The notes: a model not told the origin generated them from the letters alone. A stretch of DNA of 64,000 nucleotides from Candidatus Omnitrophota bacterium (GCA_016930235.1 JAFGHI010000025.1:16437-80436); one strand, 5' to 3'. Counted from the first letter of the stretch, positions 5,515-41,782 are shown. Numbers and translations: made by a program.

Positions 5515-6327
5515 TCATGTCACCATAAATCCAAAGATAAAAATCGATGCCTGAACTGCGCGCACAAACGCTACGGACTCATGAATCTTAATCCTTTCCC
5601 GCATTTCAACCAAAGCGCTCACAACGGACCATATCGAAAAAACAATTGCGAGTTCAAAAAAGACCGGCTTTAAAAATGCCGGACTCATGAGAAACAAAAG
5701 GAAATCCTGAAACCCTTCAATATGGTGTATCGCCACCCCCAGACGCCCGACCTTTAAAAAAGGCAGTGAATATCCGTAAAGCTTCGAAGAAAAAGGCCAA
5801 AACAAAGGCACACCATAAGCGCTGAACATATCGAGAATCACGTGGGTGGAATAAGCCAAGAAGCTGAGAGCGAAGAGACGTAGCTCCTGTGACTTTTCTC
5901 GTATAAATTTTGAAATTCGAATCTCGAAACTCGAAACAAATCCGAATAAATCAAATCCTAATATCGAAACGGTTCTTTTGGAAGCAAGCCTATTCGCCAA
6001 ACTCCGGCATTTTTTATTATTGCCTTCTTCGGATTTCTGATTTGCTTCGAAATTCGGATTTCGGATTTCGGATTTAAGGCTCTTGACAAAGTGATATCCC
6101 CCTACAATCATGAAGGCTACGATGAAAGCAGCCGCCAGACTATGGGAAGGTCCTCGGTGAAACCGTGCTGCCTGTTGGATGAAAAGCCCGGGGAGAAAAT
6201 CAAAATCGGCTAGAGCGGCGAGCAGGACAAAAAAGAGAAGGTAGGGCCATCTCGTTTTCCGGTCCTTTTGTTTTGCAAAACAATAAACCGAATAACCCGC
6301 AAACGAATGTATCACCGGTAATGGCAT
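5515..6327 (-). CDS. DUF457/YdjM-type membrane-bound metal-dependent hydrolase carrying an in-frame ~190-nt repeat-element insertion
   Basis: HRGPSHSL and YSTHVILDMFSAYGVPLFWP match the YdjM motifs HRGFTHSL and YLSHILADM..GVPLLWP. The protein is 270 aa versus about 190 aa expected for the family. The extra ~63 residues (EIRNPNFEANQ...FIREKSQE) are encoded exactly by the family-1 repeat at 5883-6075. Confidence 0.7.
   Translation of the reverse strand: MPLPVIHSFAGYSVYCFAKQKDRKTRWPYLLFFVLLAALADFDFLPGLFIQQAARFHRGPSHSLAAAFIVAFMIVGGYHFVKSLKSEIRNPNFEANQKSEEGNNKKCRSLANRLASKRTVSILGFDLFGFVSSFEIRISKFIREKSQELRLFALSFLAYSTHVILDMFSAYGVPLFWPFSSKLYGYSLPFLKVGRLGVAIHHIEGFQDFLLFLMSPAFLKPVFFELAIVFSIWSVVSALVEMRERIKIHESVAFVRAVQASIFIFGFMVT
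5883..6075. mobile_element. Family-1 inverted-repeat miniature element, copy A, inserted in-frame inside the DUF457 gene
   Basis: Left arm gaaattcgaatctcgaaactcgaaacaaatccgaata... and right arm ...cttcgaaattcggatttcggatttcggattt are inverted copies of the cgaaat/tcggattt heptamer arrays seen at 6985, 8212, 10845 and 41617. Confidence 0.6.
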
Positions 6328-6333
6328 AGCGCA

Positions 6334-6792
6334 TCATACCCCCCGAAAAGGTTCGTGAGACGATGAACTCGTCCCGCTCAGAACCGGTGATTCGGAGAAA
6401 CGGCGAGACGGCGATTTAATGACCCACTTATCCGCACTTTCTATCATCATGACAATTTGACCCATGATACGATCCGTTTCCTCTTCAAGATGTTCTGCCT
6501 CTTCCTTTGTAATATAATTACATCTCCTTGCGATTTCAGACCATACTTGTGTTTCGCAAGCTTCTGTCTCAGCATCGCTGAGCTTACTTATGAATGCCGC
6601 TTTATACCGGCGCTTCCGCCAAGCTTCTGCCAAGTTTGAACAAACCGACCTCGAAGACCTTTTCATTTGATCCGTCAAAGAATATTTTTCCTCACTCGGA
6701 AATCTCTTCGTTATTCGAAATATTTCCATTGCCATATTCATTGCACGATCATAAACATTAAGCTCTTTATAACTCGATATTATCTTCCCCAT
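6334..6792 (-). CDS. Four-helix-bundle protein (TIGR02436, '23S rRNA intervening-sequence protein' family), copy 1
   Basis: LTDQMKRSSRSVCSNLAEAW matches the family core QLxRAAxSIxxNIAEG, and ETEACETQVWSEIARRCNYI matches the C-terminal helix. About 30 aa C-terminal extension. Its stop is 6 nt from the DUF457 start. Confidence 0.8.
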   Translation of the reverse strand: MGKIISSYKELNVYDRAMNMAMEIFRITKRFPSEEKYSLTDQMKRSSRSVCSNLAEAWRKRRYKAAFISKLSDAETEACETQVWSEIARRCNYITKEEAEHLEEETDRIMGQIVMMIESADKWVIKSPSRRFSESPVLSGTSSSSHEPFRGV

Positions 6793-6799
6793 CTCTTTT

Positions 6800-6960
6800 C
6801 CCGTTGCGCCGCTTCTCCGTCTCTCCGGCTCACCCGCTCTCGTCTCTCGCCCCTTGCCCCTGCTCTTTCACCGGTTCTTCGTTTCGCCTACCCCCGTCTC
6901 GTGTCTCTCGCCCCTTGCACCTGCTCTTGCCCCTGCCCCCTTAGGGAATCATTTCTTGAG
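6800..6960. repeat. CT-rich imperfect tandem direct repeat, two copies about 58 bp apart, core ctctcgccccttgc(c/a)cctgctctt
   Basis: Read directly: ccgctctcgtctctcgccccttgcccctgctctt at about 6832-6866 and ccgtctcgtgtctctcgccccttgcacctgctctt at about 6890-6925. Confidence 0.6.
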
Positions 6961-6984
6961 AACTAAGAACACGACCTCTTATAA

Positions 6985-7170
6985 ATCCGAATCCCGAAAT
7001 CCTAAGCACGAAACAAATTCGAATATCGAAATTCAAACAAAACCAAACTCTTCATTATCTTAAACACACATTGCATTTCTTTGCTTTTTTCTTTGCCGCA
7101 ATGTTTTATATTTATCTTTCTTATTTCTGATTTCGATATTGCTTCGGATTTCGATATTCGTATTTCGAAT
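6985..7170. mobile_element. Family-1 miniature element, copy B (arms plus about 90-bp spacer; internal-deletion derivative)
   Basis: Left arm atccgaatcccgaaatcctaagcacgaaacaaattcgaatatcgaaattcaaacaaaacc and right arm ttatttctgatttcgatattgcttcggatttcgatattcgtatttcgaattt. The spacer reverse complement reads ttgcggcaaagaaaaaagcaaag..., a degraded 4HB start (MAA.KK..). The right end abuts the BY-kinase stop codon at 7171. Confidence 0.6.
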
Positions 7171-8157
7171 TTACAGCCTTTGTTCCGTGTTCTTAGTCCT
7201 TTCTTTCTTCAGCACTGCCTTTTCCCACCAGCCCTGGAACCGCTCTTCCATATCCTTCAAATTAAAGCCGGCCCGCTTAAAATGATAATGAGCACGGTTG
7301 CGGCCCTCATCACTATATTCATCGTAATAGTTGTAATAGCGGTAGTCGGGCGATGAAAACTCCACATTGGTAAGAACATAACCAAGCATCTTGGCCCCGG
7401 CCTGTTTGAATAAAACCTGGGCATGAGAAATGACACTCTTGGGCGTCCTTCCGACCTGGATCACGAATAAAACACCATCCACCTCTTTGCCCAAGATTCC
7501 GGCATCCGCCACGGACATGATCGGAGGCGAATCAATGATGATGTAATCAAAGTGATGACGAAGTTCCCGTATGAAATACTGCAGCTTTGAAGAGCTCACA
7601 AGTTCGGCGGATTTCCGGGTCGCTTCCCCTCTCGGGATAATCACAAGATTCTTTAAGGAATTCTTGCACATAACCTGCTTTGGATTCAAATCCTCACGAA
7701 GCAGCTCAGTCAGTCCCTTCTTCTTGTCACCAAAACCCATATAATCGGAAATGTTCCCGCGTCTCAAGTCGGCATCAATCAAGGCCACTCGCGCTTCGCC
7801 GTTCTCGGCCAGAGAAAGAGCCAAGTTTGTCGCGGTCACCGTCTTCCCCTCTGAGTGAATGGAACTGGAAACGAGAATCACTTGTGCCTGCTGTTTCGTC
7901 AGCTGCGCCTTCAAGGAGGTGCGAAACATCCTGTATTGCTCGGCCAGCATGGAGTCCGGAAACCTTAGCATGATCAACCGACTGTCCGGGTTTGTATTTT
8001 TAATTGTCGTAATCCCACGCTCAAAAGATGAAACATTGTCAACGGCTTCATCTTCATGTGCCGGAAGTCGCAACCCCGGACTGCCATCAGAACCAGCGGC
8101 TTTCGCCTGGTCCCTTTCCTCTTGTAGTTTTTCAAGTGCTTTCGTGTATTTACTCAT
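7171..8157 (-). CDS. BY-family protein tyrosine kinase (CpsD/EpsG-like cytoplasmic ATPase, separate from the co-polymerase)
   Basis: Walker A HSEGKT, Walker A' ALIDADLRRG, Walker B DYIIIDSPP, and a C-terminal tyrosine cluster YRYYNYYDEY. 328 aa. Confidence 0.85.
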   Translation of the reverse strand: MSKYTKALEKLQEERDQAKAAGSDGSPGLRLPAHEDEAVDNVSSFERGITTIKNTNPDSRLIMLRFPDSMLAEQYRMFRTSLKAQLTKQQAQVILVSSSIHSEGKTVTATNLALSLAENGEARVALIDADLRRGNISDYMGFGDKKKGLTELLREDLNPKQVMCKNSLKNLVIIPRGEATRKSAELVSSSKLQYFIRELRHHFDYIIIDSPPIMSVADAGILGKEVDGVLFVIQVGRTPKSVISHAQVLFKQAGAKMLGYVLTNVEFSSPDYRYYNYYDEYSDEGRNRAHYHFKRAGFNLKDMEERFQGWWEKAVLKKERTKNTEQRL

Positions 8158-8211
8158 TTTGGTATGTCTCCTTTATTCCTTTATGATAACTATTTGCTAT
8201 AACTAAACTCG

Positions 8212-8748
8212 TTAAATACGAATCTCGAAACTCGAAATCCGAAACAAATTCGAATATCGAAATACAAATAAAACAAATAACACTAAAACAATACTCGCTT
8301 GTTCCTTCAGATTGACTTTCGTACAATAGAACCGAAAATGTTCATCAATTCCGTCGATTCTTGAATCAATGACTGCACTTCTTTTTCTAAACCGTTCGTA
8401 CAAACGCCCTCCAAAAGTCGAAGCCAATAACGGCTTTCTTTTGCCTCTTTCCTGCAGATCGTGATACGCATGCCAAAATCTTTTTTCCCTAACGACTCGT
8501 TGGCTTCGATATAGTTTGCGCCAACAGAGCCGGAGGCCCTCAATAACTGTCGCATATCATCCTGCACAATCCAGGACTTGTTCGCCTTCGATAATAGATC
8601 GCGCACTTGTACGGCAAATTTATAAGTCCGTTCCTCTAAATCGTATTTCTTTTCTTTTTTATCCGCTGCCATAACGATTTCGTTTTCTCTTTCTTATTTC
8701 GAATTTCGAAATTCCTTCGGATTTCGTGATTCGGATTTCGTATTTTCT
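8212..8748. mobile_element. Family-1 composite element, copy C: inverted heptamer-repeat arms flanking an intact four-helix-bundle gene
   Basis: Left arm 8212-8285 (cgaatctcgaaactcgaaatccgaaacaaattcgaatatcgaaatacaaataaaac) and right arm 8690-8748 (ttatttcgaatttcgaaattccttcggatttcgtgattcggatttcg) are inverted relative to each other and enclose ORF 8307..8672. Confidence 0.6.
8307..8672 (-). CDS. Four-helix-bundle protein (TIGR02436 family), copy 2, carried inside the family-1 element
   Basis: 121 aa. DDMRQLLRASGSVGANYIEANE and KDFGMRITICRKEAKESRYWLRLL match the family's two conserved helices. Confidence 0.85.
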   Translation of the reverse strand: MAADKKEKKYDLEERTYKFAVQVRDLLSKANKSWIVQDDMRQLLRASGSVGANYIEANESLGKKDFGMRITICRKEAKESRYWLRLLEGVCTNGLEKEVQSLIQESTELMNIFGSIVRKSI

Positions 8749-8767
8749 GCTGTTGCGCCTACTTCGG

Positions 8768-10790: not shown

Positions 10791-10844
10791 GTGTTATCTA
10801 TCTCCTTAATTATGATTTCATATATTCATAAAAACTAAGCTTAA

Positions 10845-11040
10845 TAAATTCGAAATGCGAAACACGAAATCCGAAACAAATTCAAATATCGAAATTCAAA
10901 TAAAACCGAACGCTTCATTTCCTTAAATACAAACCGTATTACCTTCTTTTTTATCCACCGCCATATCGTTTTATACTTTTTCTTTTTTATTTCTAATTTC
11001 GAATTTGTTTCGTGCTTCGAAATTCGAATTTCGGATTTTC
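10845..11040. mobile_element. Family-1 miniature element, copy D (deletion derivative), directly adjacent to 4HB copy 3
   Basis: Arms cgaaatgcgaaacacgaaatccgaaacaaattcaaatatcgaaattcaaataaaacc and ttatttctaatttcgaatttgtttcgtgcttcgaaattcgaatttcggatttt. The spacer reverse complement reads ATG GCG GTG GAT AAA AAA GAA GGT... (MAVDKKEG), almost identical to the MAADKKEKK start of 4HB copy 2, then stops. Confidence 0.6.
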
Positions 11041-11064
11041 ATGAACGCGGTACGCGGTCCATGC

Positions 11065-11502: not shown

Positions 11503-11719
11503 TTCGATTACCCCTCAATCATGTTCCAAAGATTTAAGACAACCCGAAAGACCAGCTTGCCGCCCATTACAATAAGTGGCCAGATGATGAGATTACTATA
11601 GGCTCTCAAGATTGCTTCCCGGCCTCTCTTTAAACTATTCTTCTTTTTCATCGTCTTCCTTTTTCTTCTTGATTCGTTATTAGGCGCTGAAATTCTCTTC
11701 TGCTCCGGAAACGCATCAA

Positions 11720-12757
11720 TTAATCTCCCTTTAAATACCCGTCCTGGCCTCCATAAGCCAATTCGTAAACAGCCGAGGCCTGGAACAGCGGCCCGACCAA
11801 TCTTGAAAAGTTGTTCACAAACTTATCGAAATAACGCTGGTGAACAACAATAGTATCGCCGGGCATCAGCATGAAATCGTTCGCCGAATCCCCTTTGTAG
11901 AGCAATTCTTTTAAATTCACTTTCTTTTTCTCGGCTTCCCCGCTCTCGGTATACTGAGAAGGCCTTATCACATAAACCCGCTTCAAAGCCCCGTCATAAG
12001 TCGGCAGACCTGCCGCCACAACGGCCTCTTTCACCGTGATATTGTCACCCTTCATGGCAAATTTTCCGGGACGATTGACATATCCGAAGATATAGACGGC
12101 TTTACTCCGGTATTCGGAGATCATCACGGCCACTTCGGGATACCGGACAAACTTCTTGAGAGCGCTGACGACATCTGCCTTGAGTTCTTCCTTGGTCTTC
12201 CCTTCGGCCTTAATGTCACCCACAAAGTTGTATTGAATATTTCCCTCCGGATCGATCACAAATCGGCCAGAAAAGTCAGGCTGGTTGCGGACAATGACCG
12301 TCACGACATCATCAATCCCAAGGGTGTAATCAGATCCCTCCCCGATGACTTCGATATAGGGCGAATATTTTGAATAGGGCGAAACTTCAGAGGCCATAAA
12401 AGGATCCTGGTTGGCTGTCTGCTGACCCGGCGGCGGCGGTGTATATTGCGGCTGCCCCATGAATTGATATTGGGCCGACAAATTCCCCTGAGTGTAGGGA
12501 GAATTCATAAAGCTCGCGTATGGGGAAAATTGCGTTGAATAATTGGTACTGTAATTAACCGGCATCACATTCGAATACCCCGGTTGAGTATTCTGGGTCT
12601 GCATCTGTGACGGATCGTTTTCTCCCATATAGAGAAGATCCTCCGCAAAAACAGGGGCCGACAGGATGAATGCGATAAAAACTCCCAAAATGGCGATTTT
12701 AAATATTTTGCTTTGTGATTTCATTTCTTCTTTCCTAACCTTTCGATAATTTTTCAA
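11720..12757 (-). CDS. Polysaccharide export protein (Wza-like; Poly_export plus SLBB domains) with a ~90-aa Q/Y/P/S/N-rich low-complexity insert
   Basis: 345 aa. Signal peptide, then a low-complexity stretch PSQMQTQNTQPGYSNVMPVNYSTNYSTQFSPYASFMNSPYTQGN...YTPPPPGQQ, then a Wza-like core (GDI..EGKTKEELKADVVSALKKF...VAVMISEYRSKAVYIFGYVNRPG...PGDTIVV). Confidence 0.8.
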   Translation of the reverse strand: MKNYRKVRKEEMKSQSKIFKIAILGVFIAFILSAPVFAEDLLYMGENDPSQMQTQNTQPGYSNVMPVNYSTNYSTQFSPYASFMNSPYTQGNLSAQYQFMGQPQYTPPPPGQQTANQDPFMASEVSPYSKYSPYIEVIGEGSDYTLGIDDVVTVIVRNQPDFSGRFVIDPEGNIQYNFVGDIKAEGKTKEELKADVVSALKKFVRYPEVAVMISEYRSKAVYIFGYVNRPGKFAMKGDNITVKEAVVAAGLPTYDGALKRVYVIRPSQYTESGEAEKKKVNLKELLYKGDSANDFMLMPGDTIVVHQRYFDKFVNNFSRLVGPLFQASAVYELAYGGQDGYLKGD

Positions 12758-12960
12758 GACTCATAAACCGTGCTCACGATCTGCTGAAGGGCCTCGAGAT
12801 CTTCTTCCAGATAGATCCGCCAGCCTTTCCAGTCGCGCTTCGGTTTGCGTATTCTTCCGGCCTTTTCCCACCGAATGATGGTTTTGGCCGTGACGCCGAC
12901 TTTCTCGGCAACCTCAGTTATTGTCATTCTCTCTTCAATCACGCTCGTTTCCTCCATCAA
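12754..12960 (-). CDS. Small excisionase/MerR-type HTH DNA-binding protein (putative locus regulator)
   Basis: 68 aa. MTITEVAEKVGVTAKTIIRWEKAGRI is a helix-turn-helix of the excisionase-family DNA-binding domain type. It is the first gene of the export operon. Confidence 0.6.
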   Translation of the reverse strand: MMEETSVIEERMTITEVAEKVGVTAKTIIRWEKAGRIRKPKRDWKGWRIYLEEDLEALQQIVSTVYES

Positions 12961-13296: not shown

Positions 13297-14847
13297 ATGA
13301 ATCATAGCGTTCCATTTTTTCACGCCACATTTCAAAATGGGAAAACCATTACTCGCGGTATTTCCCATTGTAATTTAGGTCATAAAATTCCCATCGGTAC
13401 TGACCGCATAGATGGGATATACGTCGACTGGAATTGGGATGGTCAAAGACTAGAAGTCAAAAATGACCTATATGGATTTTATCCGCTTTATGTTTACCAT
13501 GATCAAAACGAGATATGCATCTCGCCATCGATTGTCAAATTGCTCGCCGAAGGCGCAAAACGGGATCTTAATTGGCCTGCCCTGGGCGTTTTTATGCGGG
13601 CGGGATTTTTCATTAAAGACGATACCCCCTTCCGCTACATCCGCGCATTGCCACCAAATGCCAAATTTCTTTGGGGAAATGGCAAACTCAAAATTTCTGG
13701 ATCTTACACTCTAAGGGATGAAAATAAGCTGACTCTTTCTCAAGCCTTAGACGACTACATTGATCTTTTCCGGCAAGCCATAAAGCGAAGATTACCCCGA
13801 AACCGCGAGTGTTTTCTACCATTAAGCGGAGGCCGGGATTCGCGGCATATACTTTTTGAACTTCTAAAAAACGGCATTCGACCTCAATCATGCATTACTG
13901 TCGAACATTACACGCAGGGCTCTAATGAAGATGCGCGCATCGCCCAACTGCTAGCGTCAACATTCAGCCTAAAACACATTTTGCTCCGGCAAACCGTTCC
14001 TTTTTTTAATTCAGAGTACAGGAAAAATTTTCTTACGAATATGTGCACGGATGAACACACGCATTTCTTAATCATGGCGGACATACTCGCCAACTCTAAC
14101 CACGCTATCTACGATGGCATCGGAGGCGATATCTTGACCTCAAGTCGGACGCTTTCAAACACGATTCTACAACTATTCCGTTCAAGAAATTTCAGGGAAT
14201 TATCTAATCTCATTTTTCGATGCGACGAAAACCTTTTAAAATGGCTGCTGAGAAGAAATATCTACTCAAAGATGAATCGTGAATCAGCTATCGAGTACCT
14301 CACGACAGAGCTTGAGCAGCATACGGATGTTCCAAATCCCCCCGGATCGTTTTATTTCTGGAATCGCACACGAAGAGAAATTTCACTTTCCAGCTATGCC
14401 CTCTGCGGTTTTAACTCGCTCATTCATATGCCTTATATTGATTATGATCTTTTCAATTTCTTGGCCGGGATACCTACTTCTTTGCTTCTCAACCAAGATT
14501 TTCATACACGCGCCATTAGCCGCGCTTTTCCTGAATTCGATAACATTCCCTACCAGGATAAAACCGTTAAAGATGTTGACCGCGAAAGTCTCCAGGATCG
14601 GTTTTTCTATGACGTCCTGGCCTATTTGATGCGATATCCATTTTATAAGACTGAGATGCTCCAACTTGAGTCCTTAATCCCTCGATGCCTTCACGCGTTG
14701 ATCAGCCCTTCCAAACGACGCGACAGCATATGGTTTACAAAACCATTACTCTATCTCCTGCAGCTTGAAGAGTTGGCGACGAAACCGGCAGTGATTTCCA
14801 ACGCCTTACGAATCGTTGAGCGCCGAGATACCGTCAAGACAACTTGA
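13297..14847 (+). CDS. Asparagine-synthetase-family (PP-loop ATP pyrophosphatase) protein lacking the N-terminal Cys glutaminase nucleophile; putative sugar amidotransferase
   Basis: 516 aa. PP-loop FLPLSGGRDSRHI. The start is MNHS, not the Met-Cys of class-II GATase. One of only two plus-strand genes. Confidence 0.7.
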   Translation: MNHSVPFFHATFQNGKTITRGISHCNLGHKIPIGTDRIDGIYVDWNWDGQRLEVKNDLYGFYPLYVYHDQNEICISPSIVKLLAEGAKRDLNWPALGVFMRAGFFIKDDTPFRYIRALPPNAKFLWGNGKLKISGSYTLRDENKLTLSQALDDYIDLFRQAIKRRLPRNRECFLPLSGGRDSRHILFELLKNGIRPQSCITVEHYTQGSNEDARIAQLLASTFSLKHILLRQTVPFFNSEYRKNFLTNMCTDEHTHFLIMADILANSNHAIYDGIGGDILTSSRTLSNTILQLFRSRNFRELSNLIFRCDENLLKWLLRRNIYSKMNRESAIEYLTTELEQHTDVPNPPGSFYFWNRTRREISLSSYALCGFNSLIHMPYIDYDLFNFLAGIPTSLLLNQDFHTRAISRAFPEFDNIPYQDKTVKDVDRESLQDRFFYDVLAYLMRYPFYKTEMLQLESLIPRCLHALISPSKRRDSIWFTKPLLYLLQLEELATKPAVISNALRIVERRDTVKTT

Positions 14848-14928: not shown

Positions 14929-16041
14929 TCAGGAATTAGGAATTAAAACCGCATATCCCCGATCGAGGAGTATCTGATTTAAATAGATCAGGCGGTTTGA
15001 TCCCTTTTTAGAATAGAAGATGTCCACGACGTAGCGGCCCCACTTGCCTTTCCTGCCGGAAACATTGGATTTGACGGTGAGATATTCGGCCTGCGCGAGT
15101 TCGGACTCCACAAACTTTTTGGCCGCTCGGCCTTCCGATGTCTTCACTTCCGGGCAATCGATCCCCTTCAAACGGAACTTGTCGGTGAACCGGTGACCGA
15201 ATCCCAAATGGAGTTCGAGCTTGAGTGTGTCACCGTCAATCACCTTTTCCACATAAGCTTTATAGGTGTAAAGCGGCGGATCGTTGGCATCAGCCCCAAG
15301 ATCAAACTGTACGGGAGCTTTTTCGAGCCGGTACTTGCCTTTTTTATCTTTCACGCTCGAGACAATCAAACCCTCGACAAATTTGACACCGGGGAAAATC
15401 CCCGCCTCCAAACGCTGCGAAAATCCAAGATCCAGAAGGAGTTCATTTTTTTGCGAGTGAATATTTTGACGCTTCACGACCGAATACGTCTCAAAACTCC
15501 CAAGACAGACAAGCGGCAGCCTTGCCTTCGATAGATCTGCCTTCTTTAAGATGTGACTGACCTTGGATTGAAGCTCCTCGCATGTCCATTCCTCTTTCAC
15601 GGCTTGCTCCGTCAAACGCAAACGTGCTTTATTATCCCCAACAGCCATGAGGATTCGATAATGTGTCCAGTTCAATTCCGACCGTACGGTCGGAATCTGG
15701 GGGTAGGTCCGATAAAATTGGAGTGTCCGCTCCAGGAGCCGTGTGTTCAGTCCGAGATCTCCGGCAAGACGCTGAAGCACACGGTTTCCGTAATCCGCGC
15801 GTTCTTGATGATGCAGGAAATGTTCGTGAATGTAACGGCCGGTACGCCAGTAGGTTTCGACCTTGAGCCGTTCAATCTCTCGCCGCCCCTGAATGAGGGT
15901 CTCCCGGATGAGAGCGAGTAAGCCCGAGTAGGTTTCGCTACCGGGTTTGACCCCGGACTCACTCTTGCGTTCAAGTGTTCTTACCTCAGCCATCTTACTT
16001 ACCTCCTGGAAGGAATGCCGCCTGAGTCTTGATTGAGGCAT
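14929..16041 (-). CDS. Fusion of a YhcG-like DUF1016 N-terminal domain with a C-terminal staphylococcal-nuclease (SNase/thermonuclease) domain
   Basis: The N-terminal region YSGLLALIRETLIQGRREIERLKVETYWRTGRYI...YGNRVLQRLAGDLG resembles DUF1016_N. The C-terminal VIDGDTLKL...RLKGIDCPE...GKWGRYVVDIFY...LLDRGYAV matches SNase motifs. The likely true start is the internal Met at about 15993. Confidence 0.55.
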   Translation of the reverse strand: MPQSRLRRHSFQEVSKMAEVRTLERKSESGVKPGSETYSGLLALIRETLIQGRREIERLKVETYWRTGRYIHEHFLHHQERADYGNRVLQRLAGDLGLNTRLLERTLQFYRTYPQIPTVRSELNWTHYRILMAVGDNKARLRLTEQAVKEEWTCEELQSKVSHILKKADLSKARLPLVCLGSFETYSVVKRQNIHSQKNELLLDLGFSQRLEAGIFPGVKFVEGLIVSSVKDKKGKYRLEKAPVQFDLGADANDPPLYTYKAYVEKVIDGDTLKLELHLGFGHRFTDKFRLKGIDCPEVKTSEGRAAKKFVESELAQAEYLTVKSNVSGRKGKWGRYVVDIFYSKKGSNRLIYLNQILLDRGYAVLIPNS

Positions 16042-16283
16042 ATTTTACTCTAGCCTGCACGGTCGAATAAAGATCTTTTATTCCCTTCAGATAGAACAGA
16101 CTATCGTTAAAGACTGAAACAAAATAAAGGTTGGGGGCAAAATTGGCAGCCGAAAAAAATAGGCTCTTTAGCGACACACGAAGCACCCTTCGAGACATCG
16201 ATTTAACAACAACCGTAAAAACTCTACGCCGTACGCAACGCTTTGGTCATCAAAAGAAATTGTTTAATTGCAAGACTAAAACA

Positions 16284-16322
16284 AAAAACCGCAGGCCGGA
16301 TTTTGCATCCAGCCTGCGGTTT
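16284..16322 (-). terminator. Rho-independent terminator downstream of gap
   Basis: The minus-strand reading ccgcaggctggatgcaaaatccggcctgcgg is a GC-rich hairpin followed by TTTTTTG, 30 nt after the gap stop. Confidence 0.6.
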
Positions 16323-16351
16323 CTAGGTTAAGGCTCTCGATCTTTTTTAAA

Positions 16352-17413: not shown

Positions 17414-17536
17414 CTAGAGAGCTCAGTCTGTGGGGGCAGAGTCACGTCTAAGCGGTCGTGATTACAGATTAGTGGGACATTATAGAGACTATTTAAGGGC
17501 TGTCAAGGGGGGTAATCGAGGAGCGCTGGGAACCGC

Positions 17537-17812
17537 GATTTGCGATTTTGGATTTTAGATTTTGGATTGCGGATTGCCCGTTTGGGCGAAAATCCGAAGT
17601 ATGAAGTTCGAGGTACGAAGTAAGAGGTAAGATGTATGAAATTTCGGATTTGGGATTTTGGATTTTAGATTTTGGATTGCGGATTGCCCGTTTGGGCGAA
17701 TTTAACCCCTCACCCTTTCCCTCTCCCCTTTGGGGAGAGGGCAGAGATGAGGTGATAAATTTGCCTAAGCGTATAATCGAAAATCCAAAATCCGCACTCC
17801 CAAATCTAAAAT
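17537..17812. repeat. Family-2 miniature element, copy E: left arm duplicated in tandem, with internal palindrome ccctctcccctttggggagaggg
   Basis: gattttggattttagattttggattgcggattgcccgtttgggcgaa occurs twice (17547-17592 and 17655-17700). The right arm at about 17776-17812 (tcgaaaatccaaaatccgcactcccaaatctaaaatgg) is inverted. A segment gaagtatgaagttcgaggtacgaagtaagaggtaag is shared with 19888-20008. Confidence 0.6.
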
Positions 17813-19887: not shown

Positions 19888-20008
19888 CCTCGAAGTATGA
19901 AAATTCCTACTTCCCGCCTCTTACTTCGTACTTCCTACCTCATACTTCCGGCTTCCTACTTCTTACCTCTTACTTCCGACTTCTTACTTCATACTTCCTA
20001 TTTCCTGC
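19888..20008. repeat. Family-2-related tandem array of tacttc(g/c)tacttcct(a/t)cct units filling the fmt-def intergenic space
   Basis: The 19888-20008 sequence is tacttcccgcctcttacttcgtacttcctacctcatacttccggcttcctacttcttacctcttacttccgacttcttacttcatacttcc. It is the reverse complement of the gaagtatgaag/gaagtacgaagta segments in family-2 arms. Confidence 0.55.
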
Positions 20009-22659: not shown

Positions 22660-22901
22660 ATTTTAGATTTCGGATTGCGGAATGCGGATTGCCCGCTTAG
22701 GCAAAAATCCGAAGTATGAAGTATGAAATGTGAAAAAAGATGAATCGTAAGTAAATGAGTCCATAGCGACTATTTTTTCGCTTTTCTCTCCTACCGCGCA
22801 CATCATATTTTTTACGTCATATTCCATGCGTCCTTCATACTTCATACCTCGTACCTCATATTTCTTTATTCAATCCAAAATCCGAATTCCAAAATCCAAA
22901 A
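22660..22901. mobile_element. Family-2 miniature inverted-repeat element, copy I, between priA and the UDG gene
   Basis: The left arm ttttagatttcggattgcggaatgcggattgcccgcttaggcaaaaatccgaagtatgaagtatg and the right arm catacttcatacctcgtacctcata...caatccaaaatccgaattccaaaatccaaaat are inverted copies. The right end abuts the UDG stop codon (22902). The 60-aa ORF inside it is probably spurious. Confidence 0.55.
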
Positions 22902-23645
22902 TTAGAGTTTCACATCGCCCAAGTTATCCATTTCCCCCTTGATCTTTTTCATATCCTCCCAGACCTTACGCTTCTCCCCGGGATTGCGCAAAAGATAAGC
23001 CGGATGGTACGTGCAAAGAACCGGAATCCCGCGGTAGTCGTGGAATCTTCCCCGCATTTGAGAAATGGACGAGCCCGTTTTGAGAAGGGCTTGTGCGGCA
23101 AATGTTCCTAAGGCACAGATGATTTTGGGTTGAATCAAATCAATGGTCCCGCTCAAAAAAGGTTCGCAATTTAAAATTTCTTCCGGCTTGGGGGTGCGGT
23201 TTCCGGGCGGACGGCAGCGCAGGCAATTCGCTATAAAAACATCCGAACGCTTGAGCCCGATCGATTCGATAATCTTCGTCAAAAGCTGTCCGGCTTTTCC
23301 CACAAAGGGCAGCCCTTGAATATCCTCATCACGGCCGGGCGCTTCCCCGACGAACATTAATTTAGCTTGAACATTGCCCGCCCCAAAAACGACTTTGTTG
23401 CGCGTCGACGCTAATTCTTCACAAGCGGTACATTTCAAGGCTTGTTCACGCAAATCGATCAGTTTTTCTCGAACACTTTTGGCTTCCGTTGAGGATTTTA
23501 CCCGAACCGGTCCGGCATCGGCTCGAACGGCTACAGGCTTCGATGCGGGGGCAAGGTAAACCTCCTCAATCCCATCCTCTTTCAGCATTTGCATAAAAAG
23601 CTTGGCTTCCGAGGTCTTAAGCGCTGTCTCCTGACTCGGGTTCAT
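22902..23645 (-). CDS. Uracil-DNA glycosylase, family 4, with an N-terminal extension
   Basis: GEAPGRDEDIQGLPFVGKAG (the family-4 GEAPG motif) and a C-terminal HPAYLLR-type segment. 4-nt overlap with the upstream GT28 gene. Confidence 0.8.
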   Translation of the reverse strand: MNPSQETALKTSEAKLFMQMLKEDGIEEVYLAPASKPVAVRADAGPVRVKSSTEAKSVREKLIDLREQALKCTACEELASTRNKVVFGAGNVQAKLMFVGEAPGRDEDIQGLPFVGKAGQLLTKIIESIGLKRSDVFIANCLRCRPPGNRTPKPEEILNCEPFLSGTIDLIQPKIICALGTFAAQALLKTGSSISQMRGRFHDYRGIPVLCTYHPAYLLRNPGEKRKVWEDMKKIKGEMDNLGDVKL

Positions 23646-27244: not shown

Positions 27245-27390
27245 CTCCTTCGTAACAGACCAAAGACCGAAGACTCAAGACAACAGACCGAATTCTAAAA
27301 AAATACCTTCATATTCAACTTTTTTAAACCCATTTAAATCTTTCTCACCAAAGTTTTTGGTCTTTAGTCTTTGGTCTCCAGTCTTCGGTC
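27245..27390. mobile_element. Family-3 miniature inverted-repeat element (gaccgaa/ttcggtc heptamer arms)
   Basis: Left arm cagaccaaagaccgaagactcaagacaacagaccgaa (27257-27293) and right arm tttggtctttagtctttggtctccagtcttcggtcttc (27350-27387) are inverted, with a spacer of about 57 bp. The element fills the gap between two genes. Confidence 0.55.
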
Positions 27391-27394
27391 TTCA

Positions 27395-28822
27395 TTAATA
27401 CGCGTTTTTAAAACCTCTTGAGGTTAACGTCATCAGTAAAATTTCAATATCAAACAAAAGAGACCAGTTTTCCATATAAAAAAGATCATACTTAATGCGT
27501 TCTTGAATGGAGGTATTTCCCCGGTAACCGTTCACCTGGGCCCAGCCCGTAATGCCCGCTTTAACCTTATGCCGTGACATATATCGGGGTATAGCTTCTC
27601 GAAATTGACTGATAAAATGCGGGCGTTCGGGACGAGGTCCGATTAAACTCATTTCGCCTTTGAGCACATTCAAAAACTGAGGCAATTCGTCAAGGTTCCA
27701 GCGCCGCAAGAAATTGCCGATCCGGGTGCGGCGAGCATCTTTGACATTGGCCCAAACCGGACCCGAATCCTTTTCTGCATCTACCCGCATCGTCCTGAAC
27801 TTGAGCAAATTAAAAACTTTTTCGTCGCGCCCCATTCTCTCCTGACTGTAGAAAATAGGACCTCCGTCATCAAGCTTAATGAGCACAATCACAAATAACC
27901 ACAAAGGGAAACTCAAAAGAAGCAAGATGGATACCGCCAGAAGATCAAAACACCGCTTGGCAAACCGATTCCAAATATCGTCCAACGGTAAAGGCCTGAA
28001 TCCGAGTAACGGGACCGTGCTAATATAATCCACGTCAACGTTGCGGGATAATAACCCGTAAAAATCGGCTCCGATTTTAAATTCGATGAATTTATCTTCG
28101 CAGGCAGCCACCAAATCGGTGATCCTTTCCCGCGTAAAACTCGTATCCAAGAGAATGACCTCGTTGGGCTTCAGATGATCAATAAAACTTTCGCATTGAT
28201 CCGAGATGCCAAGAATCGGAACCCCTTCGACATGTTTGCCGACAAGACCGGGATCCTTTGCGAGGACTCCCACGATTTCACGCCCATAATGAGGGTTGTT
28301 TTTCGCCCATTGAATGATTTGGCGCGTATTGCGATTACTCCCAAGAAGAAGGATCCGTTTAATGTCCCGCTTCTTGATTTTTCTCCTGTATTCCCATTGG
28401 ATCATGAGATAACGCGAAAAAGTCAAAATAATCCCCGAAATGACCCACAAAGTCACCAGGTAAATTCTTGAATAGGAAAAACCACGGTAAAAGAATGTCA
28501 CGGCCATTAGAATGACAACCGAAAAGGTCACCGCTTTAGAAACCAAAAAGATCTCTTCGATCCTTCGAATATGCCGGTACGTTGAATACAATCCATATTC
28601 TCTGAAGAAGTAAAGATAAACCGGAAGAATCACCATAAGCGCCTGAACATAAGGCAGGAAACTGGGGATATTTTCGCTCGAAATCCAACCCGTCACAAAC
28701 CGCACGTAATAAGCAAAAAAGACACTCGCAATCACCGCACCGCAGTCGGCAAGGACCGTCAGGAAAATAAAATGGAGTCTCTTTTCAGTTGTCGGCATCG
28801 GCCACCGGATTATCTTCCTCAA
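27395..28822 (-). CDS. Initiating polyprenyl-phosphate sugar-phosphate transferase (WbaP/EpsB-type 'bacterial sugar transferase')
   Basis: 475 aa. 4-5 N-terminal TMs, a central linker, and a C-terminal catalytic domain KRCFDLL...PIFYSQERMGRDEKVFNLLKFRTM...DELPQFLNVLKGEMSLIGPRP. Confidence 0.9.
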   Translation of the reverse strand: MRKIIRWPMPTTEKRLHFIFLTVLADCGAVIASVFFAYYVRFVTGWISSENIPSFLPYVQALMVILPVYLYFFREYGLYSTYRHIRRIEEIFLVSKAVTFSVVILMAVTFFYRGFSYSRIYLVTLWVISGIILTFSRYLMIQWEYRRKIKKRDIKRILLLGSNRNTRQIIQWAKNNPHYGREIVGVLAKDPGLVGKHVEGVPILGISDQCESFIDHLKPNEVILLDTSFTRERITDLVAACEDKFIEFKIGADFYGLLSRNVDVDYISTVPLLGFRPLPLDDIWNRFAKRCFDLLAVSILLLLSFPLWLFVIVLIKLDDGGPIFYSQERMGRDEKVFNLLKFRTMRVDAEKDSGPVWANVKDARRTRIGNFLRRWNLDELPQFLNVLKGEMSLIGPRPERPHFISQFREAIPRYMSRHKVKAGITGWAQVNGYRGNTSIQERIKYDLFYMENWSLLFDIEILLMTLTSRGFKNAY

Positions 28823-31180: not shown

Positions 31181-31185
31181 GACTC

Positions 31186-32655: not shown

Positions 32656-32725
32656 TTTTTTCTGACTTTAAGAAAATCCCAAAATTCCTTCAGGATCGAT
32701 AGTTTTCCCATATGGTTTTCCTTTT

Positions 32726-33142: not shown

Positions 33143-33154
33143 TTTTTTTCTCCC

Positions 33155-34972: not shown

Positions 34973-35196
34973 ATCTCGTTTATTAACCGACAGTTACAAA
35001 CTATATTTCGGCATGAAAATGGCACAGTTTTTCTGTGGTAAATGTGTAGAATACCTTTTTTTATATATCGAATCAAGCTTCATTATTCCTTGTCATTTCG
35101 TCACTTAGAGCAAACTGAGCCGAAAATTTTGAGGTGGATAAGTCTGGAGGGTCAAGGCGAGCTATAGGACGAAAATCTTGGAAAGACCTGCCTATT

Positions 35197-36441: not shown

Positions 36442-36446
36442 GGTTT

Positions 36447-38068: not shown

Positions 38069-38240
38069 ATCCTCTTTTCGCGATCGCTTGATTCCCGTTT
38101 CAAACTACAAATGACATAGTCTAGCGGAAAACATTTCATTCGCAATGCTTTCTTCAATCTCCATCCGTACCCACTTCCCTGCCTCTATCCTCTTAAGCTT
38201 TCCCTTGACAATTTCTCCTCGTTTCGCTATTTTCCGGGTC

Positions 38241-39029
38241 ATGACAGCCAAGAATCCTTTTGTCAGCTTTATCATCCCCGTCTTCAACGAAGAGCTGAAC
38301 ATTACAGGCGTTTTCAAGGATCTCTACGACATTCTCCACCGCCACCCCGAATGGAACTGGGAAGTCATTGTGATCGAAGACGGCTCCAAAGACAATACCC
38401 GCCGAGTAATTCTTGACCTCGTTAAAACTTATCCCGAAACTCAATTAATTCTTCACGACCAGAACCGGGGCTACTGCGCCTCCATGCGTGACGGTCTGGC
38501 CAAGGCCCAGGGAGATTACTTGATGTATATCGGCGCCGACGAGGAATTCGATTGTTCAGAACTCCCTGCCTTCGTCGAGCCTTTACGTCAAGAAGGCGCC
38601 GGGCATGCGGACATTGTCCTGGGCGTACGATGGCAACGAAATGCCTATAAACTCCACCGTTTCTTTCTTTCCGTCATCTACATTTTCCTTTTGAATGCCA
38701 TGTTTCGAATGCGCGTCAACGACTACAACTGGTCTCAGGTGTGGTCCAGGGATTTCATCGACCGTTCACAAATTGAATCCAAATCCCTTTTTATGCTTCC
38801 CGAAATTATCATCAAAGCTTACGATGCGGGATATAAGATCAAGGAAGTCCCCTCCAATCACCGGGGTCGAAAATGGGGAAAATCATCACTCAATATGAAG
38901 ATCATGACGCATGCCCTTCTGGATGCCTTCCGCTTCTGGATTCATCGCCGTTCAAAAAAATACCGGCCGCTTAAACCATCTTCTCCGTCAAAAGAACTTG
39001 TGGAATCCCCCCAAGAAATCAAAAAGTAG
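38241..39029 (+). CDS. Glycosyltransferase family 2 (polyprenyl-phosphate sugar synthase-like)
   Basis: VSFIIPVFNEELNI...VIVIEDGSKDNT...IGADEE. The start is at the internal MTAKNPF Met. This is the only plus-strand gene in this block and is divergent from 37193..38068. Confidence 0.8.
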   Translation: MTAKNPFVSFIIPVFNEELNITGVFKDLYDILHRHPEWNWEVIVIEDGSKDNTRRVILDLVKTYPETQLILHDQNRGYCASMRDGLAKAQGDYLMYIGADEEFDCSELPAFVEPLRQEGAGHADIVLGVRWQRNAYKLHRFFLSVIYIFLLNAMFRMRVNDYNWSQVWSRDFIDRSQIESKSLFMLPEIIIKAYDAGYKIKEVPSNHRGRKWGKSSLNMKIMTHALLDAFRFWIHRRSKKYRPLKPSSPSKELVESPQEIKK

Positions 39030-39072
39030 GCACATGTTTTATCGTGGCGCTTAAAATCAAACCATCGAATTC

Positions 39073-40761
39073 CTAACTTCGCTTGGACACTCCGCGTAAT
39101 TGCATGGGACCGCCATTCATGATTCGATGCTCGGTCATGACATAGAAGTCATCTTCTTCATGAATGAGAAAATAACCGGCCTTCATCAGATCCGTCAGCT
39201 CTTCGGGAAGGCCCCGGGAATTCGGCTCCCAAAACTCCCGGTCAAAGATGACATAATCAGCCTGCTTTTGCTTGGCAATCTCCGCTTTCGTCGGCACGGC
39301 ATTATAATCAAACTGATAAATTTCCTTTCGATGAGCCAGTTGCGGAATAAAATTGTTATGGGTCAGCACGGAAGCTTCTTGCGGTACATCTTTTAAGATA
39401 AAACGAATATATTGACGCCTCGGACTGTTGTGTTGAGCGCTTTGCCAATAATAATAATATTCGGATGGCCCTGACCTCAAAAGACTCACAATCATCAAAC
39501 CGGCCGCGACACCATAACGATAACGATGAAACCAATTGTATTTTTCGGTCAAACGCTGAAAACCATAGATGGCGGATATGAATACGAAGGGAGTCAACCC
39601 CGCCGTGTAATGGTAAGCAAAGGACCTCATGACGGGATTCTCTGAGAGAAGATTTTGCGTCAGGATTGGCAAGGTCAACATCCAGGTCGGAAAATGAAAG
39701 AATGATAAAAACATGAGCGGCGAATAGACCTTCAAAATATATTCCCAGGTGTCCCCCGAAAAAATGACTTTGAGAATCCCTAAGGGCGAATTCATGAGAT
39801 ACACATAGAAACCCTGATACAAATAAGGTTTTTGGCTCAGTTTGGGAATGATCCAGGAAACCTCCGCCCAAAATAAAAGGGCCGCGAAGATCATGACGGA
39901 TAAACCCAGACGATATGCTTTTTTAAACGAAACGGCATAAAGCCCCAGCATAAAAGCTACCGCCAGCATATTTTCCTTGGCCAAAATAACAACGCCAAGC
40001 GTTAGCAGAAAACCCGTCCACTTTCGCTTCTCAAGAAATATAAAAGCTAAAAAGATGAACGGTTCCGCTAAGACTTCGGGGTGAAAATCCTCATGCAAGG
40101 CATTACGGGAAGGGAGAAAGAAAAAATACGCGATGACAAAAACAAATGCCAGGAAATAATCCCCGGTTCGTTCTTTCGCAATTTTTCCAATCAGGAAAAC
40201 GCAGCTTGCCGTCGCAAGCGCTTGAAGAATCAAGAGCATCCTCGGATCCGGCCAAATCAGATAAAATGGCGTTGCGACAAGCAGAATGGGACTCATATGA
40301 TCGCCCAACAGGCAGATTCCATCCTTGATCGAAGAATAAAGGAAATGCCCTTGCATCGTATTCCAAACTGCCTGGTCAAAGATCCCGAGATCAAAGGCAC
40401 GCGTTTCAAGAGCAAGGTGGCGAATCCACCCCACCGAAATGGTCATGCCGCTATAAAGCAAAAAAACTAAGCTCACAAAAACCCAGAAACTCCAGCCTTT
40501 CAATCCCTGAATCAAGCGCACAAACCATAACTGCCGGAAAACCTCGGGACACTTCCACCTAAGAAACAACAAGGGAACAGCTAGAAGCGCCACCCCCATA
40601 CGCATCATATTGACATATCGCGTTTTCGAACTCAATTCGCTCATGAGGCCCATCTGGATCAAAGGAATACCGTTGGTGAGGATGAAAAAAAGGCCGGCCA
40701 ATCCAAGAAATGTTGTTAACAACTGCCAATGGAATGTTCTAAAATCTGACTTCAAACTCAC
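39073..40761 (-). CDS. Large polytopic membrane protein, DUF2079-like (putative GT-C-type transferase)
   Basis: 562 aa, at least 12 TMs, an AFDLGIFDQAVWN motif, and a C-terminal soluble domain. The family assignment is from memory and was not verified. Confidence 0.4.
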   Translation of the reverse strand: MSLKSDFRTFHWQLLTTFLGLAGLFFILTNGIPLIQMGLMSELSSKTRYVNMMRMGVALLAVPLLFLRWKCPEVFRQLWFVRLIQGLKGWSFWVFVSLVFLLYSGMTISVGWIRHLALETRAFDLGIFDQAVWNTMQGHFLYSSIKDGICLLGDHMSPILLVATPFYLIWPDPRMLLILQALATASCVFLIGKIAKERTGDYFLAFVFVIAYFFFLPSRNALHEDFHPEVLAEPFIFLAFIFLEKRKWTGFLLTLGVVILAKENMLAVAFMLGLYAVSFKKAYRLGLSVMIFAALLFWAEVSWIIPKLSQKPYLYQGFYVYLMNSPLGILKVIFSGDTWEYILKVYSPLMFLSFFHFPTWMLTLPILTQNLLSENPVMRSFAYHYTAGLTPFVFISAIYGFQRLTEKYNWFHRYRYGVAAGLMIVSLLRSGPSEYYYYWQSAQHNSPRRQYIRFILKDVPQEASVLTHNNFIPQLAHRKEIYQFDYNAVPTKAEIAKQKQADYVIFDREFWEPNSRGLPEELTDLMKAGYFLIHEEDDFYVMTEHRIMNGGPMQLRGVSKRS

Positions 40762-41576
40762 GAACCCCTCGGCTCCTCGCCGATTGAACGCTCATAGTCG
40801 TTATCGATTTTTCGGGATGAAATCCAATACACCGTTTTTGTGACAGCCATCAAGGGTGCGGCAGCACTATAATAAATAAAACACAGTATCCGCACATCAA
40901 AATCTTTGAAAACCAACCCCTCGAGGACCGCACCGATTGTAAGGACGTTCATCACCACGTGGATTTCGCAACTCTTATGCAGCCAGGAAAAGACATCCCG
41001 GAAGCGCCCTTTCTTCACTTGATTCAGATGGTTATCAACGTGAGCGGCCTTGAAATAAAAAGATGTTTTTTCATGCGTCGACATTTTTTCATAAAATGTT
41101 TTATATTTCACGTCATGAAGGAGATTAAAAAGCGTAATGGCTAAGGCCGGGAGAAACCCCCATTTGATAAAAAAGGCAATGCCCGTCTCGTGATAAGCAT
41201 AAAGGCCAAATCCGAAGAACAAAGCCGCATGAATAAGATGATGGGTCAGGAAATCGAAAAACCGACCGGTCAAAGTCACCTGCTTGCGATACCTGGCTAT
41301 TTGGCCGTCCACATGATCGAGCAAATACCAAAGCTGAAGCAAAACAACCCCAATAAAAAAACCGCTCATCGCAGGCACCGTCAACCACGCAATTCCGAGA
41401 AACCCGATCCCGAGTGACATCAAAGTCACCTGATTCGCCGTTACGTTTGTATGCAAAAACAGCCAAGTGACCGGCAAGGCCGCATCCCGTACAAGATGAC
41501 GCGCCATCCAGTTCCCCTTCTTCTTATAATCAGGTTTTTGGACTATTTTGTTGAGTTCTTTGAGTGATTCCATCAT
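40758..41576 (-). CDS. CDP-alcohol phosphatidyltransferase family protein
   Basis: DHVDGQIARYRKQVTLTGRFFDFLTHH matches the D-x2-DG-x2-AR...G-x3-D motif. Multi-TM. Confidence 0.8.
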   Translation of the reverse strand: MMESLKELNKIVQKPDYKKKGNWMARHLVRDAALPVTWLFLHTNVTANQVTLMSLGIGFLGIAWLTVPAMSGFFIGVVLLQLWYLLDHVDGQIARYRKQVTLTGRFFDFLTHHLIHAALFFGFGLYAYHETGIAFFIKWGFLPALAITLFNLLHDVKYKTFYEKMSTHEKTSFYFKAAHVDNHLNQVKKGRFRDVFSWLHKSCEIHVVMNVLTIGAVLEGLVFKDFDVRILCFIYYSAAAPLMAVTKTVYWISSRKIDNDYERSIGEEPRGS

Positions 41577-41616
41577 AGCGTCTTCCTTTTATTGAGCCCG
41601 CCATTTTGGCGGATGT

Positions 41617-41782
41617 AAAATCCGAATCTCGAATTTCGAAGCACAAAACAAATACGAATATCGAAATTCAAATAAGGCAAACAAAAGATCTGTGTCCTAT
41701 GCCCTTCGTACCTTGTTTTTTTCTTTCCTATTTCGAATTTTGATATTTCTTCGAATTTCGGGATTCGCGCTTCGGATTTCCC
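41617..41782. mobile_element. Family-1 miniature element, copy G (35 kb away from the other copies)
   Basis: Arms aaaatccgaatctcgaatttcgaagcacaaaacaaatacgaatatcgaaattcaaataagg and ctatttcgaattttgatatttcttcgaatttcgggattcgcgcttcggattt. It abuts the methyltransferase stop at 41788. Confidence 0.55.

Follow-up and report, generated by a model that had tools for sequence, protein, structure and literature searches.

We analyzed a 64,000-nucleotide (nt) stretch of DNA from Candidatus Omnitrophota bacterium (GCA_016930235.1 JAFGHI010000025.1:16437-80436; hereafter the window, with positions counted from its first letter), in which the minus strand carries most of the large open reading frames (ORFs). 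A family scan covered the 40 main ORFs of the 0.7-45 kb interval, and most of these belong to glycan biosynthesis and export (Wzz/GNVR, a tyrosine-kinase-like ATPase, Poly_export, many glycosyltransferases, flippases, and Wzy); they are joined by a priA-def-fmt-GT4-gap block. Beyond the window, the other 20 kb of the 84-kb source contig carry P0002, a paralogue with 84% identity. Between these genes, and once inside one, lie repeat elements of three families whose inverted arms are built of tandem 7-nt units, along with three genes for four-helix-bundle (4HB) proteins, one of them enclosed by an element (Table 1).

Family 1 is represented by five copies (el1 to el5), and their alignment covers both arms and the inner flanks. 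The long copy, el3, encloses 4HB gene 2, the product of which matches the profiles PF05635 (E 3.9e-11) and TIGR02436 (four helix bundle protein; E 1.1e-16). The spacer of el2 retains a degenerate remnant of the 4HB start region, and in el4 the sequence ATGGCGGTGGATAAAAAAGAA stands at the place of the el3 start codon and first codons. All four short copies derive from the long form by internal deletion, having lost the gene body and kept the arms and the ORF edges. One of them, el1, adds 174 nt (58 codons), in frame and free of stops, to a ydjM-family membrane hydrolase gene (5515-6327, minus strand). Most YdjM homologues have nothing at this position, and one (P0122) has a different insertion of ~30 residues in the same loop (alignment columns ~119-150, ...GAPLCAPDLSNGRTHGSAPT...), so the loop tolerates insertions; this suggests that it is used by more than one repeat family. 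The product of 4HB gene 2 is 26% identical to that of 4HB gene 1, arms flanking 4HB gene 3 were looked for and none were found, and an exact-sequence look-up of the window 4HB proteins returned no record.

A sequence-only reading of this DNA had described a single architecture, inverted arms of tandem heptamers, shared by the three families. Autocorrelation, a test it had named beforehand, gave a significant heptamer periodicity in every arm. When 35-nt segments were scanned for at least 72% identity at lags 2-15, 12 segments were detected at lag 7 and 8 at lag 14, with 0-1 at every other lag, and 50 shuffles of the window yielded no lag-7 segment. In each arm of families 1, 2, and 3, the lag-7 identity was 0.52-0.84 (z of 3.5-7.8 versus shuffles), and the pooled autocorrelation was 0.63, 0.58, and 0.51 at lags 7, 14, and 21, respectively, compared to 0.20-0.37 at other lags. 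Tandem Repeats Finder independently reported a period of 7 or 14 at the same sites. The arms are inverted, with inverted-repeat scores of 28-57 that lie above those of shuffles, and folding z values versus dinucleotide shuffles were -3.9 for el4, -7.3 for the family 3 element, and -5.7 for f2b. The shared architecture proved broader than supposed. The window holds a fourth unit type, GAAGTAT. Other details required correction: the four to six heptamers given per arm are too few for family 1, with its arms of 51-57 nt (7-8 units), and spacers put at 55-370 bp measured 50-426 nt. The arrays are intergenic, tandem 7-nt units with a lineage-specific sequence, as in the short tandemly repeated repetitive (STRR) sequences of cyanobacteria.

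No transposase, recombinase, or reverse transcriptase was present among the 40 scanned ORFs. A tRNA search of the window found none, Rfam returned no family at gathering score or at E up to 1 and no rRNA, and a consensus promoter and terminator scan gave neither an excess of sites nor any site within the elements.

Table 1. Heptamer-armed elements, arrays, and 4HB genes of the window
Feature	Position	Strand	Evidence and details
el1, family 1 short	5905..6078	-	Alignment; YdjM Pfam match interrupted; homologues without the segment
4HB gene 1, 152 aa	6334..6792	-	PF05635; weak inverted arms 6380-6413, 6807-6840
el2, family 1 short	6983..7175	-	Arms 6983-7037, 7120-7175; between tyrosine-kinase-like gene and 4HB gene 1
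el3, family 1 long	8214..8748	-	Arms 8214-8268, 8695-8748, 43/50 paired; encloses ORF 8307-8672 (minus strand)
4HB gene 2, el3 cargo, 121 aa	8307..8672	-	PF05635 23S_rRNA_IVP; TIGR02436
el4, family 1 short	10846..11041	-	Spacer keeps ATG and first codons of deleted 4HB ORF
4HB gene 3, 145 aa	11065..11502	-	PF05635; el4 directly downstream
f2a, family 2 composite	17539..17812		T-rich arms 17539-17575, 17641-17685; GAAGTAT-type arm 17589-17640; A-rich arm 17775-17812
TTCCTAC-type array, 14.7 units, 103 nt	19904..20006		Between def and fmt
f2b, family 2 nested	22663..22906		Outer arms 22663-22692, 22872-22906; inner GAAGTAT arms 22699-22735, 22833-22866
Family 3 element, AGACCGA-type units	27254..27396		Arms 27254-27301, 27352-27396
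el5, family 1 short	41619..41782	-	Alignment with other family 1 copies

Heptamer-armed 4HB cassettes in other genomes

The subfamily of 4HB gene 2 comprises at least 7,980 proteins at E up to 1e-10. For a sample blind to the arms, 80 metagenomic loci were chosen by protein pattern only, and the 73 genes with both flanks were examined for an inverted repeat linking the 180 nt before the gene to the 180 nt after it (threshold score of at least 30). Fifty-nine of the 73 (81%) passed, compared to an average score of ~16 for shuffles. The arm sequences were the same as those of family 1, and their pooled lag-7 identity was 0.59-0.61 versus 0.27 for a coding control. The ATG of the ORF lies inside the inner 5′ arm (CAAATGACC; CAAATGACCAAAAC), the complement GTTTTGGTCATTTG follows just after the stop codon, and the cassette ends are uniform (AAATYCGAA...TTCGRATTT). 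Target-site duplications were found at none of the five window copies and none of 43 well-bounded cassettes. The cassettes are co-oriented with the upstream neighbor in 50/57 cases and with the downstream neighbor in 37/44, and the median gaps to these genes, 91 and 83 nt, are occupied by the arms; groES-groEL-[4HB]-dnaJ-grpE is an example of such a site. In some cassettes (L138, L134, and L135), the upstream flank holds duplicated arms or one more short hairpin next to the cassette, and L134 and L140 each have a tRNA gene a short distance past the 3′ arm.

A scan of a species-representative genome collection with the 22-nt arm core of family 1, AAACAAATNCRAATATCGAAAT, retrieved 110 stretches. 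Their hosts include Syntrophales, Desulfobacterales, Planctomycetota, Dehalococcoidia, Omnitrophota, Verrucomicrobiota, Nitrospirota, several lineages of the Candidate Phyla Radiation (CPR), and one Thermoplasmata archaeon; a few Bacillus matches within coding sequence are probably due to chance. Almost all stretches have AAATCCG-like heptamers preceding the core, and an inverted partner 30-300 nt downstream completes an imperfect hairpin with arms of up to ~60 nt. Most are short hairpins in tight intergenic gaps, which by crude ORF calls were co-directional in 34 cases, convergent in 7, and divergent in 2; these gene-less hairpins keep exactly the inner sequences CAAATGACCAAAAC/GTTTTGGTCATTTG of the cassettes. 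Four of the core-selected loci have a 4HB gene between the arms, with products 57-66% identical to that of 4HB gene 2. Overall, the 4HB proteins of family-1-armed cassettes in other phyla are 57-67% identical to that of 4HB gene 2, as against the 26% for 4HB gene 1, which indicates that the arms co-segregate with a protein subfamily. Ten Syntrophales species share a family 1 hairpin at an orthologous site, and there the arms are 0.97-0.99 identical and most of the flanking coding sequence 0.83-0.94. In the planctomycete loci L014, L068, L099, and L021, a second palindromic repeat, TAGGGTGGGCA...TGCCCACCCTA, flanks or encloses a family 1 arm.

Arms made of different heptamers accompany other 4HB subfamilies in Nostoc, Planktothrix, Chloroflexota, and Firmicutes. 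The units are AGTCGGA in Nostoc punctiforme, AATTCAA in N. flagelliforme (four perfect copies), AATTCGT in Nostoc sp. C052 (four copies in a perfect 39-nt inverted repeat), AATCCCC and AATCGTA in Planktothrix, GAAGGAT in Chlorohelix, AATTAGG in Monoglobus, CAGTTAC against (CTGGTCA)13 in Euhalothece, and, in two metagenomic loci, GGGTCAG/CTGACCC and AGGGCAx. Seven was the best lag within the arm in 8/8 plasmid cassettes examined. Among 16 diverse cassettes, the complementarity of a cassette's own arms scored 41.4, compared to 17.4 for arms taken from different cassettes, and the own partner was the best match in 12/16; with units that differ from cassette to cassette, these values mean that complementarity persists through unit turnover. 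The 1.07 Mb of fetched loci held 92 lag-7 arrays, compared to 9-19 at neighboring lags, and many of the arrays with unrelated units form inverted pairs. Plasmid matches to the 4HB protein are mostly from Nostocales, the group in which heptamer STRR repeats were first described. Several plasmid cassettes lie inside defense or transport operons (L211, L214, L217, L218, and L219), in settings such as cas2-[4HB]-cas1 (antisense in Anabaena), upstream of cas1 in Pseudanabaena, helicase-[4HB]-N6 methylase, hsdS-[4HB]-hsdR, and RND adaptor-[4HB]-RND permease. Phage records gave one weak partial match to the 4HB protein and hence no evidence for a phage vector.

Families 2 and 3 and the surrounding genes

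Family 2 is represented by the composite f2a and the nested f2b, in which GGATTTT-type outer arms surround GAAGTAT-type inner arms. The TTCCTAC-type array at 19904-20006 pairs with the GAAGTAT-type arm of f2a, 2.26 kb away, over 42 of 51 positions (score of 57 versus a shuffle maximum of 29). The two regions that carry these arrays were compared with three relatives that keep the priA-def-fmt-GT4-gap order and have Fmt proteins 57-59% identical to that of the window. In the relatives, def and fmt overlap or are 10 nt apart, as against a 139-nt gap in the window that is filled by the 103-nt array. The GT4-gap spacing is 82-84 nt in the two relatives with gap at this place and 450 nt, filled by f2a, in the window. 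No lag-7 array was detected at the fmt-GT4 sites of the three relatives, which makes the arrays of the window lineage-specific insertions. A TTGACA-17 nt-TATAAT motif at 17470-17498 (minus strand) lies upstream of gap, so that f2a separates the gap promoter from the end of the def-fmt-GT4 unit; a similar motif occurs in two of the relatives, where heptamer arrays are absent. A GC-rich hairpin, CCTCACCCTTTCCCTCTCCCC-TTT-GGGGAGAGGGCAGAGATGAGG (~17705-17750), is embedded in f2a and is unrelated to its heptamer arms, and a small hairpin, GCCCGTTTGGGC, follows each T-rich arm, with GCCCGCTTAGGC in the same role at 22690.

The proposed kinship of the family 1 and family 2 units stood in part: a relationship is plausible, as the units are one base apart (CGGATTT versus TGGATTT/CGGATTG), although the arms have reversed polarity. 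Inspected by eye, the loops of families 2 and 3, which are too short for a profile search, showed no recognizable 4HB remnant, and blastn of their arms against the fetched loci gave short array-level matches only. In locus L100 (6540-6760), CGGTTTC/GAAAACG and AAGACCA arrays, the latter with 24 nt identical to part of the family 3 arm, occur within a 191-residue P-loop-like ORF; this looks like another in-frame insertion.

The otherwise uniform minus-strand glycan locus is broken by genes at 13297-14847 (plus strand), 14929-16041 (minus strand), and 12754-12960 (minus strand); the first is a 516-residue ORF with no Pfam match, and beside it are a DUF1016 (PDDEXK-type nuclease) gene and a gene for a 68-residue MerR/excisionase-like helix-turn-helix protein. 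Just downstream of gap, an inverted repeat at 16273-16335 with 29-nt arms that are 79% complementary (AGACTAAAACAAAAAACCGCAGGCCGGAT / ATCCAGCCTGCGGTTTCTAGGTTAAGGCT) lacks heptamers and probably represents an ordinary terminator-like hairpin.

Relation to rRNA intervening sequences and to other explanations

An Rfam scan of 20 fetched loci provided the rRNA context of the family 1 core. In a Chisholmbacteria 23S rRNA gene (L064, 1152-1312), a 6-nt helix loop of domain I has given way to a 160-nt insert, which is a family 1 short hairpin, and in Saccharibacteria (L020, ~6139-6160) the core is within a 23S rRNA gene region that holds other large insertions. To judge from this placement, family 1 acts as a true intervening sequence (IVS), at least in Chisholmbacteria. 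The IVSs of Coxiella, Leptospira, Salmonella, and CPR bacteria resemble the elements in their terminal inverted repeats or long stem, in the presence of a PF05635 (S23p/IVP) ORF in long forms only, and in a sporadic distribution that seemingly reflects horizontal spread. That of Coxiella burnetii, 428 nt in length, has terminal inverted repeats forming a 28-bp stem and an S23p ORF, and tandem GACAGAT heptamers, variable in number between strains, occupy its 5′ stem, where RNase III cuts at the first repeat (PMC4990558). PF05635 ORFs have been reported in CPR rRNA insertions, and family 1 copies are present in CPR 23S rRNA genes. Unlike these IVSs, the window copies are not in the helix loops of rRNA; all are in the spacers of polysaccharide and housekeeping operons except the one within ydjM.

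On balance, the elements are probably IVS-type hairpin cassettes, in which a 4HB gene lies between inverted heptamer arms, together with their miniature derivatives, and the cassettes are best read as promoterless, selfish units that ride on host operon transcripts. This assignment draws on the anatomy and homology of the elements, the derivation of short forms from long ones, the cross-phylum spread, the residence in rRNA, the co-orientation with host genes, the lineage-specific insertion, and the kept complementarity. The placing of families 2 and 3 in the class would follow from architecture alone. In a read-through transcript, the arms would pair to form a long imperfect stem (~40-60 bp in family 1), and RNase III may cut this stem, as in the Coxiella 23S rRNA IVS, so that the cassette RNA is excised and the insertion becomes tolerable to the host. 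The 7-nt period may derive from a bias of bacterial replication slippage toward 7-nt units; slippage would grow, shrink, and homogenize the arrays, and selection or templated copying would keep the two arms complementary. Among the long simple repeats of bacteria, those with 7-nt units are the most abundant class, an abundance that has been attributed to polymerase slippage (PMC4679880, PMC4692102). Because units differ between families and lineages while the arms of each cassette stay complementary, we favor base pairing over a single sequence-specific reader.

Several observations weigh against this assignment. Sense-strand G.U mismatches showed no excess over A.C mismatches in the arm stems of 62 oriented cassettes (150 versus 164, alongside 470 transversion mismatches) or at the arm-core-selected loci (110 versus 110), so nothing marks the pairing as occurring at the RNA rather than the DNA level; by fold energy, the sense strand is favored in 6/8 window elements, a preference that the wider set does not show. 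In the family 1 lineage, complementarity between the two arms of one cassette (44.4) is only slightly above that between arms of different cassettes (38.5), and an arm is more similar to its counterparts in other copies (46.9) than it is complementary to its own partner; such weak co-variation is consistent with a recent spread or with recognition at the primary-sequence level. In addition, ordinary genes lie between family 1 arms, something not expected of a simple selfish cassette, in L014 (Planctomycetota, ~5020-6070), L057 (~4170-5030), and L095; by eye from translations, the respective cargoes are a flgG-like 306-residue ORF, a CheY-like receiver of 128 residues, and a 280-residue ORF with a 4HB gene. 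In the window, fmt and the GT4 glycosyltransferase gene are similarly bracketed by the GAAGTAT-type pair 17589-17640/19904-20006. Family 2 has a polarity opposite to that of family 1, with the T-rich arm first, no gene-bearing relative of families 2 and 3 was found, and the arms of 4HB gene 1 are not heptameric (period of ~8). RNase III cleavage of el1 would destroy the mRNA of the gene that contains it, and the data hold no clue to how the elements move.

An alternative is that the arms are candidate binding arrays for the cassette's own 4HB protein, each heptamer being bound by one subunit of a pentameric ring, on the model of TRAP or of CspB on heptamer repeats. The protein-nucleic acid complex would then be the working unit, serving mobility, protection, or autoregulation, and gene-less copies would use the protein in trans. 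We consider this unlikely. The co-segregation of arms with a protein subfamily and the conservation of primary sequence beyond the needs of pairing agree with it, yet a binding model does not need the arm complementarity that is kept across lineages. The sole solved homologue, 2RLD, has five chains in its entry, and Avd is a pentamer that binds nucleic acid. Arms of ~4-8 units would suit such a ring, but the number of units ranges widely, from 4 to 13, and many genomes may hold short copies without a matching gene. For CspB, binding of one protein per heptamer is documented (PMC4679880).

The sequence-only reading had instead suggested a common mobilizing or binding protein that reads heptamer arrays. 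On this account the elements are miniature inverted-repeat transposable elements (MITEs), moved by a transposase encoded elsewhere that binds the subterminal arrays at both ends, as the transposases of Ac/Ds and Tn7 bind subterminal repeat arrays. The multiple copies, inverted ends, and short deletion derivatives agree with it, as do the five family 1 copies in 64 kb, the 110 stretches across genomes, and the lineage-specific insertions, so that the comparison with MITEs held for dispersed copies and presence/absence differences. It broke down at the target-site duplication, missing from the window copies and the 43 well-bounded cassettes, and at the transposase-encoding parent. The 40 ORFs to 45 kb include no transposase or recombinase, and el3, the only long copy whose cargo was family-scanned, holds just its 4HB gene; for the other long copies, the inserts were recognized from 4HB homology or visual inspection only. 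Unit sequences that differ between families and lineages are at odds with a shared binding protein, and strong co-orientation with host genes is unexpected for DNA transposons. We therefore regard mobilization of this kind as quite improbable. The suggested iteron-like design fared no better: no rep gene was found among the scanned ORFs, and the arrays are inverted pairs scattered through operons. The Correia/NEMIS elements of Neisseria are MITEs whose inverted ends form mRNA hairpins cleaved by RNase III, and like them the gene-less forms are short, abundant inverted repeats that are co-transcribed with host genes and have a stem that is a possible RNase III target. Correia elements duplicate a TA target, have 26-bp ends that are free of tandem repeats, and are confined to one genus; the window elements, in contrast, lack the duplication, have heptamer arrays as arms, and cross phyla.

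Equally improbable, in our estimate, is that the elements are host-serving RNA structures (processing stalks, stabilizers, or terminators, comparable to rRNA processing stems or to the repetitive extragenic palindromic (REP) sequences and bacterial interspersed mosaic elements (BIMEs)) that slippage built locally and in which the 4HB gene is an occasional passenger. The arms around ordinary genes, the Syntrophales site kept in 10 species with arms more conserved than their coding flanks, and the location mainly between co-directional or convergent and seldom divergent genes would be accounted for. However, near-identical 50-60-nt arms occur at non-orthologous sites in distant phyla, which makes a local origin of the arms impossible; moreover, 81% of the protein-selected sample is armed, and the consensus terminator scan showed no excess. 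That the arrays are neutral, slippage-made simple-sequence repeats whose inversion is coincidental is highly improbable and in effect refuted by the armed protein-selected sample, the arm pairing in the window, and the own-arm complementarity: heptanucleotides are the commonest long simple repeats in bacteria, but every array has an inverted partner well above shuffles, the arm sequence is conserved across phyla, and the association with one gene family is consistent.

Other known repeats share single traits with the elements. Rickettsia palindromic elements resemble el1 as in-frame, stop-free palindromic insertions at a tolerant loop of a coding gene; their sequences are unrelated to that of el1, they are not built of heptamers, and they have no gene-bearing form. 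The cyanobacterial STRR sequences, the TAACTGA repeats of Beggiatoaceae, and the GGGNATC repeats of Xanthomonas and Nostoc are likewise intergenic tandem heptamers with lineage-specific units, and STRR-type arrays bracket 4HB genes on Nostocales plasmids; unlike the elements, these repeats have been described as direct arrays, with no inverted pairing and no link to a gene family given in PMC4679880 or PMC4692102. REP/BIME sequences and integron attC sites are intergenic imperfect palindromes in operons, and integron cassettes are promoterless, co-oriented, and bounded by hairpins. Both candidates were rejected, since neither IntI nor RAYT was found among the scanned ORFs and the repeat anatomy differs: REP units are 20-40-nt palindromes rather than repeat arrays, and attC is on one side of the cassette only. 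The comparison with REP/BIME raised by the sequence-only reading likewise failed on the arms, which are 30-57-nt tandem arrays, and on the absence of a Y1 transposase from the scanned ORFs.

Implications for heptamer repeats and 4HB genes

The elements affect how genomes are assembled and annotated. Two Logan contigs with proteins identical to those of the window, L001 and L002 (from SRR13394437, a second sample), terminate at or inside heptamer arrays, L001 starting within an AAAATCC array, which suggests that short-read assemblies are interrupted by the elements. No frame of the arms contains a stop codon, and the elements stretch ORF calls and mimic split genes. For these reasons annotators should recognize them.

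To our knowledge, neither a function nor a mode of spread has been established in more than 30 years for the rRNA IVS and its S23p/IVP protein, and we know of no explanation for the bacterial heptanucleotide excess, including the cyanobacterial STRRs. The window links these two puzzles. A unit of gene plus heptamer arms occurs in operons and within a coding gene and, among relatives, within rRNA genes, across many phyla, and it offers for comparison hundreds of natural variants in which the units differ and the arms stay complementary. The IVS-type kind is already known, and the heptamer-armed operon cassettes with their miniatures are an unusually widespread variant of it. We tentatively raise a larger possibility, one that we hold to be less likely than not to be right in full: that 4HB genes bracketed by inverted heptamers and the far commoner gene-less miniatures form one widespread, little-described selfish class, of which the 23S IVS would be the best-known special case; that this class may explain a good part of the heptanucleotide excess, including the cyanobacterial STRRs; and that a pentameric protein might read its own array, one unit per subunit, and so aid the spread or the processing of the element.

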